Shown in pieces: positions 7,250 through 23,788 of a stretch of 32,000 bases of DNA. The stretch comes from an uncultured Flavobacterium sp. Its GTDB lineage: Bacteria; Bacteroidota; Bacteroidia; Flavobacteriales; Flavobacteriaceae. Position numbers and translations under genes: made by a program. Within the stretch, counting starts at the first letter, position 1, and every line of letters starts with the position of its first letter. The notes beneath the pieces are model-generated. The model worked only from the letters and a program-made list of their open reading frames with translations. It made no database searches and was not told where the DNA came from. The DNA is taken from NCBI RefSeq assembly GCF_963922255.1, contig NZ_CAWUIC010000016.1, forward strand, positions 11,360 to 43,359, given 5' to 3'.

Positions 7250-8167
7250 ATGCTAGATTTATCTATTGTTATTATAAATTACAATACAAGTAACTATACT
7301 ATTAAATGTATAGAAAGCATTTTTGAACATACTTCTGAAGATTTAAATTACAATATAAAGATTGTTGATAATCACTCTAGCAAAGGAGATGTTAACAACC
7401 TTGAACACTATTTAAAAAATTTAAATAACCCTAAAATTTCCTTTTTAAAAAATCATATTAATGTTGGATTTGGAGGAGGAAACATGATTGGTTGTCAATT
7501 TTCGGATGCAACTTATTATGCTTTTGTAAACAATGATTCATTGCTTCTAAATGATTGTTTTACTATCATTATAAATCAAATGAAAAAAAATGATGAATAT
7601 GGAATTTGTGGGCCTCAAAGTTATAAAGAAGATGGAAAATTATTACCAACTTTAGATCACTTTTCCTCTCCATTAAAAGAGTTGTTTGGAAGATATTTTT
7701 TAGAAAAAATTAATCCAAGAAAATACCCCAATAGAAAAATCGAATACAAAAGTCCTAAACGTGGACAGTTTGTATCAGGAAGCTTTATGGTGGTGAAATC
7801 GGAAGATTTTTGGAATGTAGGTGGATTTGATACCAACATTTTTTTATATCATGAAGAAACTGATTTATGTATTCGTTTGGCTAAAATAAAAAAATATGCT
7901 TACCTGATTCCTGAAGCAAAATTTATTCATTTTCATGGAGCTAGTACACCTAAGTCTATTGAAATTAAAACAGAATTAAAAGTTTCTTTACTTTATATAA
8001 TTAGAAAACATTATGGTTATATAAACTATAGAATTATATTACTTTTTCTTCAAATAAAGTATTTTATAAAGAGTATAAGAAAACCTAAATACTGGTATTT
8101 GTTTAATATCTTATTTAGAGGTGGAAGATTAACAGATTCATTGAAGCATAAGCAAAATAATAAATAG
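7250..8167 (+). CDS. Glycosyltransferase family 2 (rhamnosyltransferase-like)
   Basis: Motifs LSIVIINYNTSNYT, IVDNHSS, FVNNDS and YHEETDLCIRL. It has a hydrophobic C-terminal tail. Confidence 0.8.
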   Translation: MLDLSIVIINYNTSNYTIKCIESIFEHTSEDLNYNIKIVDNHSSKGDVNNLEHYLKNLNNPKISFLKNHINVGFGGGNMIGCQFSDATYYAFVNNDSLLLNDCFTIIINQMKKNDEYGICGPQSYKEDGKLLPTLDHFSSPLKELFGRYFLEKINPRKYPNRKIEYKSPKRGQFVSGSFMVVKSEDFWNVGGFDTNIFLYHEETDLCIRLAKIKKYAYLIPEAKFIHFHGASTPKSIEIKTELKVSLLYIIRKHYGYINYRIILLFLQIKYFIKSIRKPKYWYLFNILFRGGRLTDSLKHKQNNK

Positions 8168-8173
8168 AAATTT

Positions 8174-9343
8174 ATGACTCTTCTTAAAAGGCTTTTTAAC
8201 AAGGAAATTCATTTTGAATTTGGTTCTCTATTTAATAGTGGTCTTTATGATTCAAATAGAAAAACTGTTATTATCGTTACTGGAACGATTCCAACTTTTG
8301 ATAAAGATTCAGGTTCAAATAGATTAAAAGAAATTATTCTTTCTTACAAACAATTAAACTACAATTGTATATTGTGTTACCAATCATCAGGTAATGACGA
8401 AAAATACATTGAATTTTTCAATAATAAAGGAGTTCTTTTATATTCAGAATTAGAAAATAAAAACAAACTAATATCATTATTAAAAACTATTCCTAAAGTT
8501 GATTTCACATGGTTTTATGGACCTAACACTTTAACAAAGCACTATAAAATCTTTAAAAAAATATTGCCAAATTCAAAATCTATCTATGATATGGTCGATA
8601 TTCACTTTCTAAGGTATAAAAGAGCCATTGAATTAAATCCTAAACGAATTTCATTAAAAAAAAGATATAAGAAGTACTTTAAAATTGAAACTGTTTTAGC
8701 TAAAAAAGTTGACGTAATAATATCAATTTCTGAACAAGAAAAAGAAGTTATGTCTGCTTATGTTGACAAAAACAAAATTATTACAATTTCAAATATTCAT
8801 TATATAAAGGTTGAATTACAAAAAACATCTTCATATGAAGATAGAGAAAATATTTTGTTTATAGGTTCTGCACATACTCCAAATATAGATGCATTATACT
8901 TTTTAAAAGACAAAATAATGCCTTCAGTATGGAAAAAATTACCAGAACTTAAAGTAGATATCATTGGTAATTTAGATAAAGAAATTTCAGATATAAAACA
9001 TCCAAATATTATTTTTCATGGCTATGTTCCAGAAATTGAAACCTATTTTAATTCTGCGAAATTTATGATTGCTCCTTTACGTTATGGTGCTGGTGTAAAA
9101 GGTAAAATTGGTCAATCTTTTGAGTATCATTTACCATTAATAACTACTAATATTGGAGCAGAAGGAATGTTTTTAAAACACAACGAAAATGCATTAATAG
9201 CTAACAATGCTGAAGATTTCGCTAATGAAATAATCAACCTTTATGAAAACAAAAATCTTTGGCTAAAACTTCAAAATAATTCTGAAGATAGTTTGAAACC
9301 ATTTTCAAGAGAAATTTTAAAAGAAACATTAAAAAAAATATAG
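8174..9343 (+). CDS. GT-B fold glycosyltransferase (GT4-like)
   Basis: Motifs FDKDSGSNRLKEI near the N-terminus and GAGVKGKIGQSFEYHLPLITTNIGAEGM near the C-terminus. It is collinear with the C-terminal half of 9346-11385. Confidence 0.7.
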   Translation: MTLLKRLFNKEIHFEFGSLFNSGLYDSNRKTVIIVTGTIPTFDKDSGSNRLKEIILSYKQLNYNCILCYQSSGNDEKYIEFFNNKGVLLYSELENKNKLISLLKTIPKVDFTWFYGPNTLTKHYKIFKKILPNSKSIYDMVDIHFLRYKRAIELNPKRISLKKRYKKYFKIETVLAKKVDVIISISEQEKEVMSAYVDKNKIITISNIHYIKVELQKTSSYEDRENILFIGSAHTPNIDALYFLKDKIMPSVWKKLPELKVDIIGNLDKEISDIKHPNIIFHGYVPEIETYFNSAKFMIAPLRYGAGVKGKIGQSFEYHLPLITTNIGAEGMFLKHNENALIANNAEDFANEIINLYENKNLWLKLQNNSEDSLKPFSREILKETLKKI

Positions 9344-9345
9344 TT

Positions 9346-11385
9346 ATGAAGTTGAAAAAAAAAATAAGCCTTTTTTTTAGGAGAAGAAGAAAAGTTAAAC
9401 AACTTGAAGATAAACTAAAAAACATACAACCTAAAGTACTTACTAAAATTGACAGAACACCTATTTCATTTAAAAGTTCTGAAAATCCAAAAGTTTCTAT
9501 AATTATTCCTTTTTATAACCAAGAAATTTACACTTGGAATTGTCTTCAGTATTTACATAAGAACTTGACTGATAATTATCCATTTGAAATTATATTAATT
9601 GACGATAATAGTTCTGAGAAATATGATTTCACAAATGCTTCTGGAATTAATATTATTAAAAATGAAACTAATTTAGGCTTTTTAAAAAATATTAACAAAG
9701 GAATAAACGCTTCCAAAGGCGAGTATGTTTATTTATTAAATAATGACACAGAAGTCTATGAAAACTTTCTAGATGAACTTTTTTATGTCTTTGAGAACCA
9801 TATGAATGTTGGTGCTGTTGGTTCTATGTTATTAAATCCAGATCAAACATTACAAGAAGCTGGTTCTGTCTTTATGAAAGATTTTACTATTCATCAAATT
9901 GTGAGAAACAGAAAACCGTTTTATCCAGAAGTTAATTATATAAGAAAAGTAGATTATTGCTCAGGATGTAGTTTATTATTTAAAAAGCATAAAGATAATG
10001 GAGATTTAAATTTATTCGATGAACAATTTGCTCCAGCTTATTTTGAAGAAACTGATTTATGTTTTGATTTAAAGTACAATCAAAATAAAAGTGTTTATTA
10101 TACACCTTTTTCTAAGGTTTTACATTTTAATGGAATTACATACAACGATAAATCTAAACAAAATCAAGAAAGTAATAACCGTAAAGAAATTTTATTTAAA
10201 ACGAATCAAAAGAAGTTTTATGATAAATGGAATCAACAAATAAATAGCATTCAAGCTGAATGTGTTGAAGATAGAATTTTAGAAATCAACAACAATAAAT
10301 CTATTTTATTTATAAACGATACTGTTCCAGAATTTGATAGAGATTCAGGTTCCAATAGATTGAAAGAAATTATGAATGTATTTGTAGAAAAAGGGTACAA
10401 TGTATCTTTCGTTTCTAAAGATATATTCATATGGCAAGCCTATTTAGAAGTTTATCAAAGAATGGGAATTAATAGTTTTTATGAACATTTGCAGTACAAA
10501 GATTATAAATATTTTATTTCAAAATATTGTGCAAATGCTAACTATGTTTGGATTTATGGTCCTAATAGTTTTAAAAATTATTATGAAAAAATTAAATCTC
10601 TTTTTTCAAATGCAAAATTCATTTATGATATGGTTGACATTCATCATTTAAGATTTAAAAGAGCATCTGAAATCAACAAAGAAGATAAAAGTAATTTAAA
10701 AAACTATTTAGCCTACAAAAAAATTGAACTAGAAGCCGCAAAAGTATCTGATTATACAATTACTATTTCTGATGACGAAAAAGAGTTCATGAAAACATAT
10801 TGTGATGAAGAAAAACTAATTACAATATCTAATATTCATTATCCTAAAGTAAAACAAACAGAAATAAATCAGTTTGACCATAGAAGTGATATTCTATTCA
10901 TTGGTTCTACACATCATCCAAATGTAGATGCTATTTATTTTTTATATAATAATATAATGCCAATTGTATGGAAGTCTTATCCAAAAATGAAAGTAAATAT
11001 TATTGGTAATATAAATACTGTTGTTAAAGATATTACTGATGAAAGATTCATTTTCCATGGTTTTGTTTCTGATATTGAACCACTATTTAATAATGCAAAA
11101 TTAATGGTAGCTCCTTTATTGATTGGTGCAGGTGTGAAAGGAAAAATCGGTCAAGCTTTTGAATATTACCTACCTGTTGTAACAACTAGTATTGGAGCAG
11201 AAGGAATGTTTTTAAAAGATGAAGAAAATGTTTTAATTGCAGATGAACCAAAAGATTTTGCTAACTCAATTATAAAATTATACACTGATGATGTCATTTG
11301 GAAAAAACTTTCTCAAAATTCAGAAAAAAGTTTGTACCCTTTTTCTATTGAAAAAGTAAATGATGTTATTAATGAAAATTTTTAA
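9346..11385 (+). CDS. Two-domain glycosyltransferase: N-terminal GT2 fused to a C-terminal GT4-like GT-B domain
   Basis: The N-terminal half has VSIIIPFYNQE, LIDDNSS, LLNNDT and YFEETDLCFDL. The C-terminal half has FDRDSGSNRLKEI and GAGVKGKIGQAFEYYLPVVTTSIGAEGM. Size is 679 aa. Confidence 0.75.
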   Translation: MKLKKKISLFFRRRRKVKQLEDKLKNIQPKVLTKIDRTPISFKSSENPKVSIIIPFYNQEIYTWNCLQYLHKNLTDNYPFEIILIDDNSSEKYDFTNASGINIIKNETNLGFLKNINKGINASKGEYVYLLNNDTEVYENFLDELFYVFENHMNVGAVGSMLLNPDQTLQEAGSVFMKDFTIHQIVRNRKPFYPEVNYIRKVDYCSGCSLLFKKHKDNGDLNLFDEQFAPAYFEETDLCFDLKYNQNKSVYYTPFSKVLHFNGITYNDKSKQNQESNNRKEILFKTNQKKFYDKWNQQINSIQAECVEDRILEINNNKSILFINDTVPEFDRDSGSNRLKEIMNVFVEKGYNVSFVSKDIFIWQAYLEVYQRMGINSFYEHLQYKDYKYFISKYCANANYVWIYGPNSFKNYYEKIKSLFSNAKFIYDMVDIHHLRFKRASEINKEDKSNLKNYLAYKKIELEAAKVSDYTITISDDEKEFMKTYCDEEKLITISNIHYPKVKQTEINQFDHRSDILFIGSTHHPNVDAIYFLYNNIMPIVWKSYPKMKVNIIGNINTVVKDITDERFIFHGFVSDIEPLFNNAKLMVAPLLIGAGVKGKIGQAFEYYLPVVTTSIGAEGMFLKDEENVLIADEPKDFANSIIKLYTDDVIWKKLSQNSEKSLYPFSIEKVNDVINENF

Positions 11386-11434
11386 TTTTTTTCCAATTAT
11401 TAAATTTAAAACTAAAAAAACTAAAAACAAATAA

Positions 11435-13303
11435 ATGTCGCAGAAAAAATACTTCCCTCATATTGATGGATTACGTGGAATTGCTGTTTTATTAGTTTTA
11501 CTGTTTCATCTTGATAATTCCCTTTTCAAAGGAGGATACATTGGTGTAGATGTTTTTTTTGTAATTAGTGGTTACTTAATTAGCACAATACTAATTAATA
11601 AAATTGATAGCAATTCCTTTTCATTTAAAGACTTTTATCTGAGAAGAATGAAAAGATTGATGCCTGCAATGCTATTTGTAGTAATATTGACAATAGTAAT
11701 GGGATATATCATTTTTCCTTTACACTTATTAGAAAAATCTTTAAAATCATCAACTGCATCAATATTATCTTTTTCAAATATATTCTTTTTCAATGAATCT
11801 GGTTATTTTGATTCAGGAGCTCATTTAAAACCATTACTTCATACATGGTCATTATCTGTTGAAGAACAATTCTACTTAATTTGGCCTTTTCTATTATTTT
11901 TTACTTTAAAAATCAAGAAAAAAATTTATAGGATTTTAGTGTTAACAACTATAGGTGTTATTAGTTTAATTTATTGTGAGTATTATTTAACCATAAATAG
12001 TTCTGCTGCATTTTTCTTAACACCATTTCGCGTTTTTGAATTTCTTATTGGAACTTTACTTTTTTGGACAAACAAAATTGAATTTAAATTGTTTATCAAA
12101 GAAGTACTTTCATTTATTAGTATTACTGGATTAGTTTTTCTTAGTTATTTTTATGACAATAATGTAGCTTTTCCGGGTGTTAATGCTTTATTACCTTGTC
12201 TTTTTTCTGCAATTTTAATACACAATACTGGACAATCAAAATATGTAAGTTTAATTTACAACAATCAACTTATTAGATGGTTTGGTAAAATATCCTATTC
12301 ATTATACCTTATTCACTGGCCATTTATTGTGTTTTACAAATTTTTATACACTCAAGAATTAGATTTAATAGACCAATTCATTCTATTTATTGCTTCTACT
12401 TTTGTAGGATTTCTCATTTACAAATTTGTTGAAACTCAGTATAGAGAAACAAGAAACAACAGCAAACCTTCAAATACAATCATCTATATCATTTCAACAA
12501 TAGCCTTAATTTTAACAGTTAATTTGCTGATACTTAAATTTGGCTCATTTATTTTCAACACAAAAAACACAACTAACTACAGTTTAAAACAAATAGAAAA
12601 CGGAAAAGAATTAAGGTTTAAATTTTGTAATGAACAGTTTTTAAATGACATAGCTTTAGAAGAAACAAGTCACAAAGAACAAGTTTTAATACTTGGTGAT
12701 AGTCATGCACCAGATGCACTTAATTTTTTAAAACTTGCCTATCCAAATTATGATTATAGAATGCTGACAGAAGGAGGTTGTCCACCAATGATCAAGTCAG
12801 ATTTAAAATTAATTGAAAACCATCCAGTAGAAATAAAAAACAATTGTTATGCTTTAATGGATAAGATTATCACATTAGATTTATCGGGTTATGAATATAT
12901 TGTAATCAATGTTATGTTTGATTGGTATAAACCTGACAATTTAGTTAATTATATCAAAGAGTTAAAAAAGAAAACTGATGCTCAAATAATTGTTTTTGGT
13001 AATTATATAATTCTAAATGATGATTTGGTTAACCATCCCAATTTAGCTAAAAGTTTAACTAATGATGATATTAAAAGTTTAGCATTATATGAAAATGAAT
13101 TAAAACTTAAATCTAAAGGGCTATACAGATATATTAGTAAAAAGGATTTATTGTGTAAAAATAATTCAAACGACATTAAAGATTGTGTTATTTTTACAGC
13201 TCAAAATGCTCCAATGACTTATGATAGTAATCACTTAAGCTTTGAGTTTGCTGAAATAATTTCAGATAGTTTATTAGCAAAAAAAACAAATGTCTTTAAT
13301 TAG
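11435..13303 (+). CDS. Acyltransferase family 3 with C-terminal SGNH domain (OatA-like glycan O-acyltransferase)
   Basis: The N-terminus is HIDGLRGIAVLLVLLFH with about 10 hydrophobic helices. The C-terminal domain carries LILGDSHAPDA (SGNH block I). Confidence 0.85.
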   Translation: MSQKKYFPHIDGLRGIAVLLVLLFHLDNSLFKGGYIGVDVFFVISGYLISTILINKIDSNSFSFKDFYLRRMKRLMPAMLFVVILTIVMGYIIFPLHLLEKSLKSSTASILSFSNIFFFNESGYFDSGAHLKPLLHTWSLSVEEQFYLIWPFLLFFTLKIKKKIYRILVLTTIGVISLIYCEYYLTINSSAAFFLTPFRVFEFLIGTLLFWTNKIEFKLFIKEVLSFISITGLVFLSYFYDNNVAFPGVNALLPCLFSAILIHNTGQSKYVSLIYNNQLIRWFGKISYSLYLIHWPFIVFYKFLYTQELDLIDQFILFIASTFVGFLIYKFVETQYRETRNNSKPSNTIIYIISTIALILTVNLLILKFGSFIFNTKNTTNYSLKQIENGKELRFKFCNEQFLNDIALEETSHKEQVLILGDSHAPDALNFLKLAYPNYDYRMLTEGGCPPMIKSDLKLIENHPVEIKNNCYALMDKIITLDLSGYEYIVINVMFDWYKPDNLVNYIKELKKKTDAQIIVFGNYIILNDDLVNHPNLAKSLTNDDIKSLALYENELKLKSKGLYRYISKKDLLCKNNSNDIKDCVIFTAQNAPMTYDSNHLSFEFAEIISDSLLAKKTNVFN

Positions 13304-17268: not shown

Positions 17269-18288
17269 ATGAAAACGAATAAACCAGTCATCATTTGGCT
17301 ACTTTCAGGATGTGTGTTGTTATTTATCATGGTAATGGTTGGAGGAATTACGCGTTTAACCAATTCTGGTTTATCGATGACCGATTGGCATTTAGTTACC
17401 GATACATTTCCTCCTTTAAGTGAAGAAAAATGGGTGGATGCATTTGAAGAATACAAGAAATTCCCTGAATACCAAAAAATTAATATTCACAACGATTTTA
17501 CACTTTCTGATTATAAATTCATTTATTTTTGGGAATGGTTTCACCGTTTTATTGGACGAATTATCGGTATAGTCTTTATTATTCCTTTCTTTTATTTCTT
17601 AATCAAAAAGAAATTAGATTCATCAACCATAAAAAAATGCATCATCTTATTATTGATGGGTGCTTTTCAAGGCTTTTTAGGTTGGTTTATGGTTAAAAGT
17701 GGTTTAATTGACAATCCAGATGTGAGTCATTTTAGATTGGCTTTACACCTAACTTTCGCATTTATTACCTTCGCTTACACACTTTGGGTTGCTTTGGATT
17801 TAATTTATCCAGAAAAAAACGAAATCTATAAATCACTCAGAACAATTGCGAGAATAGCTTTTGTAGCTTTAATCATCCAAATTATTTATGGTGGTTTTGT
17901 TGCTGGTTTAAACGCTGGTTTGGTTCATAATCATTGGCCTTTGATGAGTGATGGGCAATTCATACATGATAGCGTTTTTATTGAACAATCTACCTTATTT
18001 AAAAACTTGGTTGAAGGGAAAAGTGGTGTTCAGTTTGTTCATAGAACATTTGCTTATGTTGTAGTTGCTTTAATTGGTTATTTATATTACAAGAGCCGAA
18101 AAATCAACTTAAACACTACTCAAAAGAGAGGAATGAAAGTGCTTTTATCATTTGTATTTCTACAATTCATTCTTGGTGTTTTCACTTTACTTTTTCATGT
18201 TCCTTTGTGGTTAGGATTGACGCATCAGCTAATGGCTTTTTTACTTTTATCAGCAATGACTTTTGTGTTGCATCGTTTATCTAAATAA
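17269..18288 (+). CDS. ctaA: COX15/CtaA family heme A synthase
   Basis: It has about 8 TM helices. The N-terminus GGITRLTNSGLSMTDW, plus WEWFHR and VHRTFAY histidine motifs, are typical of COX15/CtaA. Confidence 0.8.
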   Translation: MKTNKPVIIWLLSGCVLLFIMVMVGGITRLTNSGLSMTDWHLVTDTFPPLSEEKWVDAFEEYKKFPEYQKINIHNDFTLSDYKFIYFWEWFHRFIGRIIGIVFIIPFFYFLIKKKLDSSTIKKCIILLLMGAFQGFLGWFMVKSGLIDNPDVSHFRLALHLTFAFITFAYTLWVALDLIYPEKNEIYKSLRTIARIAFVALIIQIIYGGFVAGLNAGLVHNHWPLMSDGQFIHDSVFIEQSTLFKNLVEGKSGVQFVHRTFAYVVVALIGYLYYKSRKINLNTTQKRGMKVLLSFVFLQFILGVFTLLFHVPLWLGLTHQLMAFLLLSAMTFVLHRLSK

Positions 18289-19212: not shown

Positions 19213-19968
19213 TTACCCAATCCAAGACTTAAAATCAGAAACTTTTTCTCTAGAAACGATTACTTCTTCTTCTTTGTAAGAAGGTAAAATCACTTTTAAT
19301 CTTGAATTACTATAAACCTGAATCTCTTTAATTGCTTTCAACGGAACTATAAATTTTCGACTTACGCGATAAAAATCTTTTGGATTTAACTCCTCTTCTA
19401 TATGTTCCAAAGTTGTATCTAAAAGGTAATTTCGATTTTCAAAAGTGTGCAAATAAGTACCTTTATTTTCGCTATAAAAACACTCAACCTCATCGATAGA
19501 AATCACTTTGAGTTGCTGACCAATTTTGACAGAAAATCTATTTTTATATTCTTTAGTTTCTGAACCTAAAATCATCTTCTTGATCATGTCAAAATCCAAA
19601 TTAGAAACTGTGTTTTTTTGGACTTGATTTTTAAATTTATTTATGGCAATTTCCAAGTCAACATCATCAATAGGTTTTAACAAATAATCGATGCTATTTA
19701 GCTTAAAAGCACGCAAGGCATATTCGTCATAAGCAGTAGTAAAAATGACCGCACTTTTGATGTCAATTTGCTCAAAAATTTCAAACGATAATCCGTCCGA
19801 AAGTTGAATGTCTAAAAAAATTAAATCAGGATGATTGTTGTTTTGAAACCATTCTATTGATTCCTCTACAGAATGTAAAAGTGTATGTACTTCTAAACCC
19901 AATTTTTCAACTTTTCGTTGCAACAATCTTGCTGCTGGTTTTTCGTCTTCGATGATTATGATATTCAT
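19213..19968 (-). CDS. LytTR/AlgR family response regulator
   Basis: The N-terminal receiver domain is MNIIIIEDE...DLIFLDIQLSDG...TTAYDEYA. The C-terminal LytTR domain contains FYRVSRKFIVPLKAIKEI. Confidence 0.9.
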   Translation of the reverse strand: MNIIIIEDEKPAARLLQRKVEKLGLEVHTLLHSVEESIEWFQNNNHPDLIFLDIQLSDGLSFEIFEQIDIKSAVIFTTAYDEYALRAFKLNSIDYLLKPIDDVDLEIAINKFKNQVQKNTVSNLDFDMIKKMILGSETKEYKNRFSVKIGQQLKVISIDEVECFYSENKGTYLHTFENRNYLLDTTLEHIEEELNPKDFYRVSRKFIVPLKAIKEIQVYSNSRLKVILPSYKEEEVIVSREKVSDFKSWIG

Positions 19969-20018
19969 GTTTTTTAAATTTTAATCTGCATACTAATTAC
20001 TGAACACTGACAACTAAT

Positions 20019-20387
20019 CTATTCCCATTTGTTATTTTTCTCTTTCTCCATCAACTCCTTAATTTTTCGTTCTTCCCAATCACTTCCTAAAATCATTCCT
20101 GGTAAAAAAACAGATAATCCATGAGCTAACAATCCAATTCCCCAAAAGAAAGCTGTTATAAAATTATGCCATTGAAAATAACTTTCTCCTTCTCCAAGAT
20201 TTTGATAATTAATTACTACAAACATTAAATTGATAACTAAATAAACTAATGCATGAGTATAAAAACCCTTTATTCGTTTTACTCTTTTTAAAGCTTCATA
20301 ATATTTAGCATCTTCTGGATTTGTTGGTATATAATTTTTAAAATCTCTTCTATCCATTCTTCTTTGTGTTCTGTCTTCTATACTCAT
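20019..20387 (-). CDS. 2TM domain-containing small membrane protein
   Basis: Y-x2-A-x3-V-x3-KGFY-TH is followed by two hydrophobic helices and then SDWEERKIKE. It is a paralog of 20389-20700 and of the kinase C-terminus. Confidence 0.75.
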   Translation of the reverse strand: MSIEDRTQRRMDRRDFKNYIPTNPEDAKYYEALKRVKRIKGFYTHALVYLVINLMFVVINYQNLGEGESYFQWHNFITAFFWGIGLLAHGLSVFLPGMILGSDWEERKIKELMEKEKNNKWE

Positions 20388-20388
20388 C

Positions 20389-20700
20389 TTATTTGAATTT
20401 ATTATTTAACTTTTCTTCTTCCATGAATTGTTTAATCTTTTTTTCTTCCCAATCTTTATTAAAAAATGGAAAAAAGTTAAACACTCTCATTCCATGTAAT
20501 AAGACTCCAATTCCCCAACCAAGCAAAGTCCAAATGAACCATAGAACTTCTGGAGTATATTTAAGGTTGATGTATATTATTATAATCATTACTACTACAA
20601 AACTTAATAAATGACTATAAAACCCTTTTATTTCTTGTACTTGTTTTTTAGCTTTTTGATAACGTTCAAAATCATTATTCTTTTCCATAATTAGTTCCAT
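20389..20700 (-). CDS. 2TM domain-containing small membrane protein
   Basis: It has the same module: YQKAKKQVQEIKGFYSH, two helices, then KDWEEKKIK. As tracked, the start overlaps the kinase stop by 10 nt. The alternative Met5 start at 20688 leaves a 2-nt gap. Confidence 0.75.
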   Translation of the reverse strand: MELIMEKNNDFERYQKAKKQVQEIKGFYSHLLSFVVVMIIIIYINLKYTPEVLWFIWTLLGWGIGVLLHGMRVFNFFPFFNKDWEEKKIKQFMEEEKLNNKFK

Positions 20701-22046
20701 TTTGATTCCTCTTTATTTTCTTTTTGTAAAATTTCTTGAATTTTCTTCTCTTCCCACGATTTTCCATAACCAAAAGTATCAAAGGCATGAAAGGTTAAAC
20801 CTAATCCCCAACCTAACATTGGAAACCAAAACCATTGAAAACTTGATGTGTTTAAATTAATTATGATAAGAATAGGAATAACACAGCAATAAGAAATTAA
20901 ATTTCCATAAAATCCTTTTAATTTTTCTACTCTATCTTTTGCTCTATCATAAGCTGTTTGTTCGTTGTAATTATAATTTGTTTCCATAACTGATATTTGT
21001 TTTGTTAATATGGGAAGTTTTAACTTGAAGTATTCGTCTGTATCTTCAACTATAACATTTCGTTTAGATAAAATTGCATATCTATTTACAATGTTTTGAA
21101 GCCCAACACCTCTTCTATTTTGTAATACTTCCTTTTTTTGTTTGTTATTTTCTATTATTAATTCATTTTGAATTATACCAATCTTAATGTGTAAAGGTTT
21201 TTTTTCGCTAACTACATTGTGTTTTATGCAATTTTCTAATAATAATTGTAACGATAACGGAACTACTTTTGCATCTTCATTGTCAAAATTTTCTGGAATT
21301 TCAAAAGTTATACTGTCTTCAAATCGCATTTTCAATAAATTCATGTAGGTTTTTGCAAAAGCTAATTCTTCTGCAACTGTAACCAATTCTTTATCCTTTT
21401 GTTCTAAAACATATCTGTAAATTTTAGATAAAGAAGTGGTGAATTTTTGTGCATTTTCTGGATTTTCTTCGATCAATGAACTCAAAACATTTAAACTGTT
21501 GAATAAAAAATGAGGATCAATCTGGTTTTTTAAACTCTCAAACTTGGCTGAAGCTGTTCCTGCAATAATCTTTTGTTCTTTTATTTTATTTTCTTGCGAT
21601 TTTCTATAAAAATAAATTAAGTGAAAGATTAAAGTAATTATTAGAGTAATCAAAAGTGAAATTAAATAGAAACTAAATTTTTCTTCCCTAATAAATTTTT
21701 CGAATGATTCCCTGTAAATAATAACTTCTGTAGTATATCTAATACAAAAAATACCGAACATGGTTAAAAGCACACTTCCTATAGCACTAATAAAAAATCT
21801 ATATCTACTATATTTTTCCCATCTAACTTTATTGTTCAAATAATCAAAATAAGTACCATTAATTATTGATAATACTACACCATAAACGCAATAATAGCCA
21901 AATTCTACTAACAAATCGTTATTAAATTCCGGTCTTCTTCCAAAAGTATATTCAATACCAATTATTACACAAAAAATTACAATACTAATGATAAGTCCTT
22001 TGAATAAAGCTTTTATTATATTTTGAATTATTTTCTGAATTGTCAT
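20691..22046 (-). CDS. LytS-type sensor histidine kinase with four N-terminal TM helices and a fused C-terminal 2TM module
   Basis: H-box DPHFLFNSLNVLSSLI, N-box LQLLLENCIKHN and G-box RRGVGLQNIVNRY are present. The last ~90 aa (YDRAKDRVEKLKGFYGN ... KSWEEKKIQE) form a 2TM module. Confidence 0.85.
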   Translation of the reverse strand: MTIQKIIQNIIKALFKGLIISIVIFCVIIGIEYTFGRRPEFNNDLLVEFGYYCVYGVVLSIINGTYFDYLNNKVRWEKYSRYRFFISAIGSVLLTMFGIFCIRYTTEVIIYRESFEKFIREEKFSFYLISLLITLIITLIFHLIYFYRKSQENKIKEQKIIAGTASAKFESLKNQIDPHFLFNSLNVLSSLIEENPENAQKFTTSLSKIYRYVLEQKDKELVTVAEELAFAKTYMNLLKMRFEDSITFEIPENFDNEDAKVVPLSLQLLLENCIKHNVVSEKKPLHIKIGIIQNELIIENNKQKKEVLQNRRGVGLQNIVNRYAILSKRNVIVEDTDEYFKLKLPILTKQISVMETNYNYNEQTAYDRAKDRVEKLKGFYGNLISYCCVIPILIIINLNTSSFQWFWFPMLGWGLGLTFHAFDTFGYGKSWEEKKIQEILQKENKEESKWN

Positions 22047-22067
22047 GATACGTTTTTTAAGAATTTA

Positions 22068-22688
22068 TTATTTACACGCTGCTAATACTTCCTTAGCTCT
22101 ATCTAATCCCCAATTGGGATGAAAAGGTGTTTCTAATTTAAAACTTTCAAATAAAGGTATTGCTTTTGCAATTTGCTCACACATTGGTGATGTATCTTGA
22201 CCGAAAAACTTGGCTGAACCCATTTCAAATTCTGCTTTAGAGAACATTACTCTTGGATTTTCAGGAGCTATTCTTGTTGCTTTAGCATAAATGTCTTTTG
22301 CCATAATTGAATATTTCATTCCGTTTTTCATAGGATCTAAAACAATCCAACCTGTATAAATCATTCCTTGTAAAACTAATAGCTCTGGGTTTTGATTATC
22401 ATTACTTAATTCTATATCTAAAGCCTTTTGAGCTGAATCTAGTAACGAAGTAACTTTTTCTTTATCTTGTGTTTGAAAAGAAGCTAAAGTGTTAACTAAT
22501 GCTGCATAATAGTTCGGTAACCAATTGTCTTTTTCAACTGAAGCTAAATTTTCAAATACTGCAACAGCTTCAGTATTTTTTCCAGTTTGCCATAAACTCA
22601 TTCCATTTTTCATTTCAATTTCATAATTAGATTGAGCTGAAACTAAACTACAAACTAAAATGGCGATAAATGTGATAATTTTTGTCAT
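22068..22688 (-). CDS. Hypothetical secreted protein, probably helical-repeat (TPR-like)
   Basis: It has a signal peptide MTKIITFIAILVCSLVSAQS and lies 21 nt upstream of the kinase gene on the same strand. The TPR-like call is only an impression from its helical, A/L/E-rich periodicity. Confidence 0.5.
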   Translation of the reverse strand: MTKIITFIAILVCSLVSAQSNYEIEMKNGMSLWQTGKNTEAVAVFENLASVEKDNWLPNYYAALVNTLASFQTQDKEKVTSLLDSAQKALDIELSNDNQNPELLVLQGMIYTGWIVLDPMKNGMKYSIMAKDIYAKATRIAPENPRVMFSKAEFEMGSAKFFGQDTSPMCEQIAKAIPLFESFKLETPFHPNWGLDRAKEVLAACK

Positions 22689-22873
22689 AATTTCTAAAAT
22701 TTAAAGTTAGTATTTCTTTTTTGATGAGACAAAGTTGCATTAGATTAATTCATTTTTAAAAATGTATTAACCGAACTGTTGTTTTTTGAGGATGAATTGT
22801 AATTTTATAGTGATTTAAATTTTTCAGAAGTTAAAATTGACATCGAATTAGTACATTTACAAAAACATTACTC

Positions 22874-23788
22874 ATGGAGTACCAACAAATTTTAAACTCA
22901 ATATATAACGAAGTTAAGCTACTAGAAAACAAGGGTTCTATTGCAGATTACATTCCTGAATTAACTAAAGTTAATGCTTCTAAATTCGGAATTTCATTAA
23001 TTGATAACCAACAAAACATTTATAATGTAGGAAATGCAACTGAAAATTTCTCGATTCAAAGTATCACAAAAGTTTTTACAACTGCATTAATTTTTTCTAA
23101 AATAGGAAATGATTTATGGAAAAGAGTCAATTTTGAACCTTCTGGAAACGCTTTTAATTCTTTAGTTCAGTTAGAATATGAAAACGGAATTCCAAGAAAT
23201 CCTTTTATAAATGCTGGTGCTTTAGTTATTGCCGATTTAATGTTAGAACATTTTGAGGATCCAAAAACATATTTTTTAAATTTTGTAAGAACATTGGCAA
23301 ATTCAGAAAACATTAACTACAATTCAAAAGTGGTTTCTTCGGAAAAAGATACAGGTTTTAGAAATGCTGCATTAGTCAATTATATCAAATCCTATGGCAA
23401 TATTAGAAACAATCCAGAAGATGTTTTAGATTTTTATTACCATCAATGTGCTTTAGAAATGAATTGTGAAGAATTAGCCAAAAGTTTTCAAGTCTTTTCA
23501 AATAATGGAATAAATCCATATAATAACGAGCGTTTACTTACTTCAAGTCAATGCAAAAGAATGAATGCCTTAATGCAAATGTGTGGTTTTTATGATCAAG
23601 CTGGAGAATTTACTTTTAAAGTAGGTTTACCCGGAAAAAGTGGTGTTGGTGGTGGCGTTACTGCTGTTTTTCCAAACAATTATACCGTTGCTGTTTGGAG
23701 TCCAAAACTAAATAAAAAAGGAAATTCTGTTTATGGATTAGAAACTTTAGAACGATTAACCACAATCACTGAAGCCTCAATATTTTAA
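22874..23788 (+). CDS. glsA: Glutaminase A
   Basis: It has SIQSITKVF (the Ser-x-x-Lys catalytic motif of the serine-dependent beta-lactamase-like glutaminases), NPFINAGA and GLPGKSGVGGG. Size is 304 aa. Confidence 0.9.
   Translation: MEYQQILNSIYNEVKLLENKGSIADYIPELTKVNASKFGISLIDNQQNIYNVGNATENFSIQSITKVFTTALIFSKIGNDLWKRVNFEPSGNAFNSLVQLEYENGIPRNPFINAGALVIADLMLEHFEDPKTYFLNFVRTLANSENINYNSKVVSSEKDTGFRNAALVNYIKSYGNIRNNPEDVLDFYYHQCALEMNCEELAKSFQVFSNNGINPYNNERLLTSSQCKRMNALMQMCGFYDQAGEFTFKVGLPGKSGVGGGVTAVFPNNYTVAVWSPKLNKKGNSVYGLETLERLTTITEASIF

Follow-up and report, generated by a model that had tools for sequence, protein, structure and literature searches.

Organization and conservation of the locus

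A 32-kb stretch of DNA from an uncultured Flavobacterium sp., here called the window and the reference for all window coordinates, carries on its minus strand a compact array of five genes that encode a secreted protein of the HusA/FqPBP porphyrin-binding type (PBP), a sensor histidine kinase ending in a 2TM hairpin (Pfam family PF13239), two free-standing 2TM proteins (2TM-A and 2TM-B), and a response regulator of the LytTR class. A predicted LytTR-type operator and a probable promoter element lie upstream of the first gene (Table 1). The sequence-only reading of this DNA had described five minus-strand open reading frames (ORFs), the first two 21 nt apart, the second overlapping the third by 10 nt, and the two remaining junctions having gaps of 1 nt and 50 nt; the ORF listing returns the same five positions, and the same spacings can be read off the sequence. 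An alternative ATG for 2TM-A at 20688 would convert the 10-nt kinase/2TM-A overlap into a 2-nt gap.

Table 1. Features of the cassette and its upstream region in the window (aa, amino acids)
Feature	Position	Strand	Basis
Secreted HusA/FqPBP-family protein (PBP), 206 aa	22068..22688	-	ORF; fold and profile match
Sensor histidine kinase with C-terminal 2TM hairpin, 451 aa	20691..22046	-	Pfam, AlphaFold2, fold matches
Free-standing 2TM protein A, 103 aa	20389..20700	-	Pfam 2TM, E 2.6e-29
Free-standing 2TM protein B, 122 aa, last-copy type	20019..20387	-	Pfam 2TM, E 4.6e-26
Response regulator, receiver + LytTR, 251 aa	19213..19968	-	Pfam
Predicted LytTR-type operator	22771..22800	-	Two 9-bp direct repeats, 12-bp spacer
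Probable Bacteroidetes -7 element CAACTTTG	22730..22737	-	7/8 matches to TAnnTTTG

The window was compared with 80 related loci from a genome scan (52 to 76% identity) that represent many genera of the Flavobacteriaceae, including Flavobacterium, Winogradskyella, Eudoraea, Christiangramia, Kordia, and Flagellimonas, and the cassette was inventoried in them by ORF calling and phmmer. The order secreted protein, kinase-2TM, free 2TM copies, and LytTR regulator is found in 80/80 loci, which places the cassette far beyond chance, and the genes flanking it are not conserved with it. The gene-neighborhood census that the sequence-only reading had proposed thus yields a single conserved cassette in which fused and free 2TM copies are conserved together. 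The PBP gene was found in 66/74 loci, and the number of free 2TM copies per locus ranges from zero to six with a mode of two (one copy in ~18 loci, two in 37, and three in 15). Median intergenic gaps in the related loci are 6 to 26 nt within the array and 59 nt ahead of the regulator. The ratio of nonsynonymous to synonymous substitution rates (dN/dS), calculated for the window genes against locus L001 with dS near saturation, is 0.08 to 0.36 across all five genes, with 0.075 for the regulator, 0.30 for 2TM-A, and 0.21 for 2TM-B. The two small 2TM ORFs, on whose reality the sequence-only reading depended, are genuine genes under purifying selection that are co-conserved with the 2TM-tailed kinase. 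Database records from an uncultured Flavobacterium sp. contain proteins identical to the PBP and to 2TM-B.

A secreted protein of the HusA/FqPBP family

The first gene had been read as encoding a secreted accessory protein; secretion stands, and the identity of the protein can now be sharpened to the HusA/FqPBP-type porphyrin-binding family. Its AlphaFold2 (AF2) model, with a predicted local distance difference test (pLDDT) score of 93, is a HusA-like, nine-helix, TPR-like right-handed superhelix. The top fold match in the PDB is the Porphyromonas gingivalis hemophore HusA (6bqs; TM-scores of 0.78/0.80 and a root-mean-square deviation of 2.8 Å over 191 columns), with generic TPR proteins reaching a TM-score of 0.62 or less. 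Pfam returned only subthreshold TPR matches, and a family profile of the PBP matched HusA (PG_2227) with an E value of 3.4e-15 over residues 20 to 206. The hydrophobic groove of HusA accommodates heme as well as porphyrins that lack a metal, and iron is not ligated (PMC6173696). F80 of that groove corresponds to F71 of the PBP, which is conserved, and L123/V124 correspond to V116/L117, so that these positions are still hydrophobic.

The second characterized relative, FqPBP of Flavobacterium quisquiliarum (WP_179002276.1), is an abundant protein of ~21 kDa with a HusA-like fold and one disulfide; it bound protoporphyrin IX (PPIX), zinc protoporphyrin (ZnPP), and hemin in vitro and disperses Pseudomonas biofilms, and its authors report neither sequence homologs nor genomic context (bioRxiv 10.64898/2026.04.07.716877). 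All 10 of the binding residues named for FqPBP are present at an offset of +18 in the orthologs of loci L059 and L072, which sit directly upstream of a 2TM kinase and are singletons under accessions other than that of FqPBP. In the window PBP, six of the 10 are identical and four are conservative replacements (I115, E153, F161, and D196 for V, D, W, and E). The window protein shares with FqPBP the family, a mature size of ~21 kDa, the HusA-like fold, and a single Cys pair; unlike in the published account of FqPBP, the family is tied here to a kinase/2TM/LytTR operon and a LytTR box. Our literature search found no paper that ties HusA or FqPBP proteins to a LytTR system.

Q19, which follows the signal peptide, is kept in 59/60 PBP orthologs, and a likely signal peptidase I site precedes it. 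Under the Q rule of the Bacteroidetes, a Q after the cleavage site fits signal peptidase I substrates. C170 and C205 occur in 60/60 orthologs and C13 in only 19/60; because C13 is not conserved, the PBP is not a lipoprotein. Judged by sequence profile and modeled fold, the PBP is a member of the HusA/FqPBP porphyrin-binding family, and porphyrin binding by the window protein is predicted. It may be the periplasmic co-sensor that the sequence-only reading proposed or, just as well, an effector.

An atypical kinase and an intact response regulator

Pfam matched His_kinase (PF06580; residues 167 to 245, E 1.5e-26) and 2TM (PF13239; residues 368 to 440, E 1.7e-27) in the kinase, and Response_reg (E 4.4e-14) and LytTR (E 2e-22) in the regulator. 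All the hidden Markov model searches that the sequence-only reading had suggested therefore gave matches, and the regulator is a receiver joined to a LytTR domain, as had been supposed. In the regulator, 72/72 orthologs retain E7, D8, D53, T78, and K98. For the kinase, more than 8000 relatives are on record, the best 120 of which all contain both PF06580 and PF13239 and are named "2TM domain-containing protein."

The AF2 monomer of the kinase (pLDDT 72; predicted TM-score, pTM, 0.37) consists of four N-terminal transmembrane (TM) helices, a dimerization and histidine phosphotransfer (DHp) domain with H179, a compact alpha/beta catalytic domain, a disordered linker (residues 350 to 360), and a helix-TM1/TM2/helix module (residues 362 to 447). 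Its outer loops are short, about 15 and 25 residues. The core fold matches GanS, DesK, PhoQ, and other kinase catalytic structures, and a profile match to GanS has an E value of 5e-14. H179 (in DPHFLFN), N272, N300, G313, and G315 are invariant in 80/80 orthologs, as are Q303 and K305. Both the N box (E271, N272) and the G2 box (G313, G315) are invariant. The G1 motif (DxGxG) is replaced by E-N300-N-K-Q, the ATP lid is ~25 residues shorter than in GanS, and no Pfam HATPase_c match was obtained at E ≤ 0.1. Kinases that carry the 2TM domain at the N terminus (P0489 and P0494) retain a canonical HATPase_c. Nor did Pfam detect 5TM-LYT (PF07694), and the four N-terminal TM helices belong to no known family. 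The label LytS, given to this kinase from sequence alone, accordingly applies only by virtue of the His_kinase (DHp) domain, there being no 5TM-LYT sensor and no Pfam match to HATPase_c.

In combining a PF06580 phosphoacceptor domain with a receiver-LytTR regulator, the system resembles LytSR of Staphylococcus aureus and BtsSR and YpdAB of Escherichia coli. Unlike LytS- and BtsS-type kinases, the window kinase has no 5TM-LYT or GAF input domain, with four unrelated TM helices in their place; it also departs from LytS-type kinases in the loss of the G1 box, the short ATP lid, the TM hairpin after the catalytic domain, and the free paralogs of that hairpin in the operon. An adjacent LytTR/kinase gene pair of Flavobacterium johnsoniae, FJOH_RS09515/09520 (PMC10197871), was considered as a counterpart; no 2TM genes are stated for it, and it cannot be equated with the 2TM system.

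A conserved LytTR box upstream of the operon

The operator in the window has the form ACAATTCAT-N12-ACAGTTCGG, with ACAATTCAT at 22800-22792 and ACAGTTCGG at 22779-22771, a 21-bp register. The LytTR consensus consists of 9-bp repeats with a 12-bp spacer, as exemplified by AgrA, and the direct repeats of the window are close to AgrA's ACAGTTAAG. The sole zero-mismatch match to ACARTTC-N14-ACARTTC in the window lies at 22773-22800. Counting of k-mers recovered ACAATTCA in 33/66 upstream regions and in none on the reverse strand, and the full element reads ACAATTCATCC-N10-ACAGTTCRGT. A search within 300 bp of the first operon gene that required at least 12/14 matches and allowed spacings of 20 to 22 found the box in 61/77 loci, PBP-less loci among them, and always at a spacing of 21. 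In a spacing control over 1.75 Mb, there were 229 matches at 21 versus 21 to 46 at spacings 18 to 24.

Among the 100 best box sites, 35 have a TAnnTTTG element that starts exactly at +63, counted in nt from where the first repeat begins, and the consensus at that position reads A..TTTG. The probable -7 element of the window (Table 1) keeps the same distance of 63 nt, which would put the transcription start about 35 nt upstream of 22688. A sigma-70 promoter scan was uninformative (23 sites versus 25 expected); Bacteroidetes promoters differ from this consensus.

The reach of the box was also assessed in metagenomes with a scan that used the DNA element alone and was thus independent of the proteins. 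Of 112 scorable sites, 97 precede genes of the PBP/kinase/2TM system: the first gene after the box encodes a PBP at 38 sites, a DUF2141 protein at 34, a TonB-dependent receptor at 15, the kinase at eight, a 2TM protein at one, and a DUF2306 protein at one. The other 15 sites include four that precede DUF2807/Toastrack lipoproteins; proteins of this "GIN"/Toastrack type, ~240 aa long, are encoded first after the box in L121, L123, L171, and L194, which hints at further regulon members. The TonB-dependent receptor gene is found upstream of the cassette and on the same strand in 44/80 loci, with a box of its own at -91 to -94 from the start codon. The receptor is ~717 aa long and comprises CarbopepD_reg_2, Plug, and barrel regions, and neither the PDB nor NCBIfam gave an informative match for its specificity. 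The DUF2141 protein (PF09912) is secreted and ~137 aa long, and its gene is often the first after the box, either before the PBP gene or replacing it (e.g., L059:3861-4277 and L116:3305-4333); natural PBP-DUF2141 fusions exist, and the window has no DUF2141 gene.

Given the LytTR box upstream, the regulator probably has the operon genes among its targets, in addition to any input that they may provide. The operon appears, from the placement and conservation of the box, to activate itself, and the regulator would act by activation rather than repression. Operon-level autoregulation, as predicted here, is a further likeness to known LytTR systems. In six loci (L034, L040, L046, L052, L053, and L058) a second box lies between the kinase gene and the first free 2TM gene, 95 to 111 nt upstream of the latter; the 2TM genes and the regulator form a box-driven unit of their own in those genera.

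2TM modules and their relation to the kinase

As the sequence-only reading had recognized, the same 2TM module occurs three times, at the C terminus of the kinase and as the two free proteins (Pfam E values of 1e-26 to 1e-29; 91 to 101 bits against a curated cutoff of 24.8). The three copies are 35 to 38% identical, the motif columns picked out in that reading are invariant, and the repeat can be detected in the DNA at spacings of 373 and 293 nt. The consensus over 246 modules is Y..A..rV..iKGFY.H, TM1, N, a short loop, gWGiGl..H...vF, and WEErKI, with F42, Y43, W82, G83, W104, and E105 conserved at 94 to 99%. Separate sequence signatures mark the tail class and the last free copy, which indicates positional orthology. 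By charge distribution, all hairpins have both termini inside, and their outer loops are 7 to 17 residues long; the kinase tail fits the membrane-inserted hairpin that had been proposed, both ends being cytoplasmic according to the AF2 helical hairpin and the positive-inside charge. 2TM-A, with an outer loop of 7 aa, has an orthologous first copy in 79/80 loci. 2TM-B has a basic N-terminal extension and 1853 homologs, many of them 65 to 97% identical at a length of 122 aa. Its 17-aa GESYF outer loop (residues 60 to 76, …GEGESYFQWHNF) is strongly kept in last-copy orthologs, unlike the loops of the other copies, and in 24/26 loci that have a GESYF-loop copy it is the last one.

Two specific roles for these features were considered and rejected. 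Docking of the PBP on the GESYF loop of 2TM-B is not reflected in co-occurrence, GESYF being present in 23/62 loci with a PBP versus 3/8 without. Ligation of heme by the TM2 His of the hairpin would require a residue that is conserved at 85 to 88%, versus 94 to 99% for WGxG, GFY, and WE..K; this weaker conservation argues for packing rather than an axial ligand.

A profile search placed the 2TM family in 2818 clusters, mostly of free-standing proteins of ~100 aa, with many 2TM-2TM proteins of ~200 aa. Longer members identified with Pfam include kinase-2TM and kinase-2TM-2TM proteins and kinases in which a C-terminal 2TM is the sole membrane segment; in some other kinases an N-terminal 2TM directly before the DHp domain is the only membrane part. 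In one such lineage, a distant one, a free 2TM gene precedes genes for a 2TM-fused kinase and a LytTR regulator with neither PBP nor receptor, and other genomic contexts again pair 2TM with LytTR regulators. In L088 (603-3125), an operon that lacks a recognizable kinase gene, a LytTR response regulator is accompanied by two free 2TM proteins and by one fused to CarbopepD_reg. On the sequence evidence, 2TM is a generic partner of PF06580 kinases. Natural fusions are the usual genomic sign of modules that work together, and the fusions, the kinases whose only membrane part is 2TM, and the PBP-less lineage lend indirect support to coassembly of free and fused 2TM copies. No paper on PF13239 was found in the literature: the phrase "2TM domain-containing protein" led only to the unrelated glycine-zipper protein SlyB, and a phage-shock-protein paper was set aside as irrelevant to the family, "2TM" being used there generically.

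MgrB, SafA, and MzrA of E. coli and LiaF and VraT of Firmicutes are small membrane proteins, encoded with a two-component system or controlled by it, for which binding to the kinase in the membrane, with an effect on gain or feedback, has been proposed. The free 2TM proteins would resemble these; they differ in being paralogous to one of the kinase's own domains and in forming tandem arrays whose copy number varies. An effector function would be a different reading of the same genes: the free copies would be small inner-membrane proteins that handle or buffer lipophilic tetrapyrroles or stabilize the membrane, and the kinase tail would report their state or anchor the catalytic domain. The free 2TM genes follow the LytTR box, and six loci give them a box of their own, which suits this reading, as does a copy number of zero to six, like that of dosage-driven effector families. 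In its favor, too, the locus type encodes an outer-membrane receptor and a periplasmic binder and no inner-membrane transporter, and the hairpin has conserved aromatic and His residues. We consider it unlikely, given that the membrane His is only 85 to 88% conserved, that 2TM is fused to PF06580 kinases at either end and is sometimes their sole membrane segment, in sensor position, and that free 2TM, 2TM-kinase, and LytTR genes occur together where PBP and receptor are absent.

The free 2TM genes are immediately upstream of the regulator gene in 79/80 loci, an arrangement that recalls HdrRM and BrsRM of Streptococcus mutans, in which an autoregulated LytTR gene stands beside a gene for a small membrane protein (PMC6193735). 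Membrane proteins that hold LytTR regulators thus have precedent, and the free 2TM proteins might be membrane-tethered antagonists that sequester the regulator in the manner of HdrM and BrsM; the kinase-less array of L088 would suit such a role. The HdrRM and BrsRM regulators have no receiver and no kinase, whereas the regulator here has an intact receiver (with D8, D53, T78, and K98 invariant) and a cognate kinase. The S. mutans inhibitors are not of the 2TM family, no sequence relation to HdrM or BrsM turned up in our searches, and 2TM is fused to kinases, with no fusion to a regulator seen. Sequestration of the regulator is therefore very unlikely in our estimate.

Proposed function of the cassette

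The reading that we favor, with somewhat more than even confidence, is that an autoregulated LytS-type/LytTR cassette governs Hus-like capture and uptake of a tetrapyrrole, with the 2TM hairpins as membrane partners of the kinase. The kinase would phosphorylate the response regulator from H179 on D53, and a regulator dimer would bind the two 9-bp repeats (Table 1), just upstream of the Bacteroidetes-type promoter, and activate the whole operon, its own gene included along with those for the PBP, the kinase, and both 2TM proteins. The adjacent TonB-dependent receptor and the DUF2141 protein would be driven from such a box as well in many relatives. In the periplasm, the PBP would bind a hydrophobic tetrapyrrole. 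Since so little of the kinase is exposed outside, in short outer loops, and even less of the 2TM hairpins, the signal would be read by a helical bundle, either within the inner membrane or at its surface. The kinase tail and the free 2TM copies would pack together by way of the WGxG face, which is conserved, and their juxtamembrane helices. As products of the regulated operon, the free 2TM copies may in turn feed back on kinase output. Gene content, homologies, conservation, fusion architectures, and the box with its regulon are observations of this comparison, whereas we infer the direction of regulation, kinase activity from the reduced ATP site, the ligand in the window species, its intramembrane reading, the coassembly of the 2TM copies, and the sign of the feedback.

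A functional parallel is the Hus system of P. gingivalis (HusA and the receptor HusB), in that a HusA homolog comes first in the operon and a TonB-dependent receptor is adjacent in over half of the loci. HusA is an outer-membrane lipoprotein; the window PBP instead carries a signal for signal peptidase I and lacks a conserved Cys in a lipobox. The residues W130 and Y164 of HusA are Gly in the PBP, and the receptor is absent from the window. The hus regulator HusC, moreover, is of the MarR type (PMC12094164) and does not belong to a LytTR two-component system. The idea that regulation might be connected by way of the P. gingivalis hus genes was accordingly dropped, HusC being MarR-type, HusD an unassigned membrane protein, and no LytTR protein being found. 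ChrS and HrrS of Corynebacterium and HssS of S. aureus offer a parallel for the sensing step, since there too heme-related genes are under a kinase with little extracytoplasmic sequence and a lipophilic tetrapyrrole is read in the membrane. Those kinases are of unrelated families and work with OmpR/NarL-type regulators, with no binding protein and no 2TM, and the ligand here is putative.

Several observations weigh against the favored reading. W130 and Y164 are two of the four HusA residues important for hemin binding, and their counterparts in the PBP are invariant G123 and G157, so the ligand may differ. The link to FqPBP is one of residue numbering only, not of full-sequence alignment. The PBP is missing from 8/74 loci, and tblastn found no receptor homolog anywhere in the window; the 2TM/kinase core thus works without PBP or receptor. 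Since 2TM systems without a PBP exist, 2TM is not porphyrin-specific, and the variable number of free copies, zero to six, is compatible with an effector role too. The absence of a recognizable G1 box and the shortened ATP lid make kinase activity an assumption. Finally, the kinase monomer with its pTM of 0.37 is uninformative on the packing of the tail, also against the N-terminal helices.

Some of these points would also fit a signal that is not a tetrapyrrole; it might, for instance, be a shortage of iron, stress on the envelope or membrane, or a different hydrophobic compound. The HusA-like protein, the DUF2141 protein, and the receptor would then be coregulated cargo only. The replacement of W130 and Y164 by invariant Gly and the existence of PBP-less 2TM/LytTR systems are two such points; to these may be added the receptor's lack of a specific family assignment and the envelope proteins that are occasional guests of the operon (DUF2306, PMT_2 glycosyltransferase, and DUF2807/Toastrack). 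We nevertheless regard a nontetrapyrrole signal as distinctly unlikely. In most loci the regulated operon begins with the PBP gene, a member of its family binds porphyrins in vitro (bioRxiv 10.64898/2026.04.07.716877), and the pairing of a HusA-like protein with a TonB-dependent receptor mirrors the P. gingivalis hus locus (PMC6173696, PMC12094164).

A more far-reaching form of the tetrapyrrole reading would make 2TM a modular, exchangeable intramembrane sensing unit, the kinase tail and a variable set of free paralogs forming a combinatorial bundle that detects the tetrapyrrole passed on by the PBP. We hold this to be unlikely; if true, it would represent an undescribed type of porphyrin/heme sensor that switches on Hus-like uptake across the Flavobacteriaceae.

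The genes of the cassette are already annotated piecemeal in databases, and the kinase-2TM architecture has been catalogued. What the present comparison provides is a context for PF13239, a family named without a known function: in Bacteroidota it goes with PF06580 kinases and LytTR regulators, as their partner or input module. The unusual layout, with a hairpin after the catalytic domain and tandem free paralogs of it in the operon, offers a workable model for kinase domains that occur as independent subunits too. The FqPBP family gains a regulator, a kinase, and a candidate DNA operator, joined in many species by a receptor. Members of the Flavobacteriaceae either are associated with algae and detritus, where breakdown products of chlorophyll and heme abound, or are fish pathogens that need heme, and an uptake switch responsive to tetrapyrroles, if true, would matter for both the algal/detrital and the fish-pathogenic lifestyle.

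Neighboring genes and other features

Rfam detected no RNA family anywhere in the window, and no terminator was found after the regulator gene. In some related loci the stretch from the last 2TM gene to the regulator holds additional membrane-protein genes, a DUF2306 gene in seven and a PMT_2 (ArnT-like) glycosyltransferase gene in three; examples of such inserts are L005:6969-7634, L054:7031-7507, and L036:7351-8841. In the window, a glutaminase gene (22874-23788, plus strand) is divergent from the operon promoter region; it has no homolog in any of the 80 related loci and so is not part of the system. About 1 kb past the regulator lies a COX15/CtaA heme A synthase gene (17269-18288, plus strand), a homolog of which occurs within 5 kb in 33/80 loci, reflecting either plain synteny within Flavobacterium or a heme-related link. 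A run of plus-strand genes at 7250-13303 resembles a surface-polysaccharide cluster and includes a GT2/GT4 fusion glycosyltransferase (9346-11385) and an AT3-SGNH acyltransferase (11435-13303).

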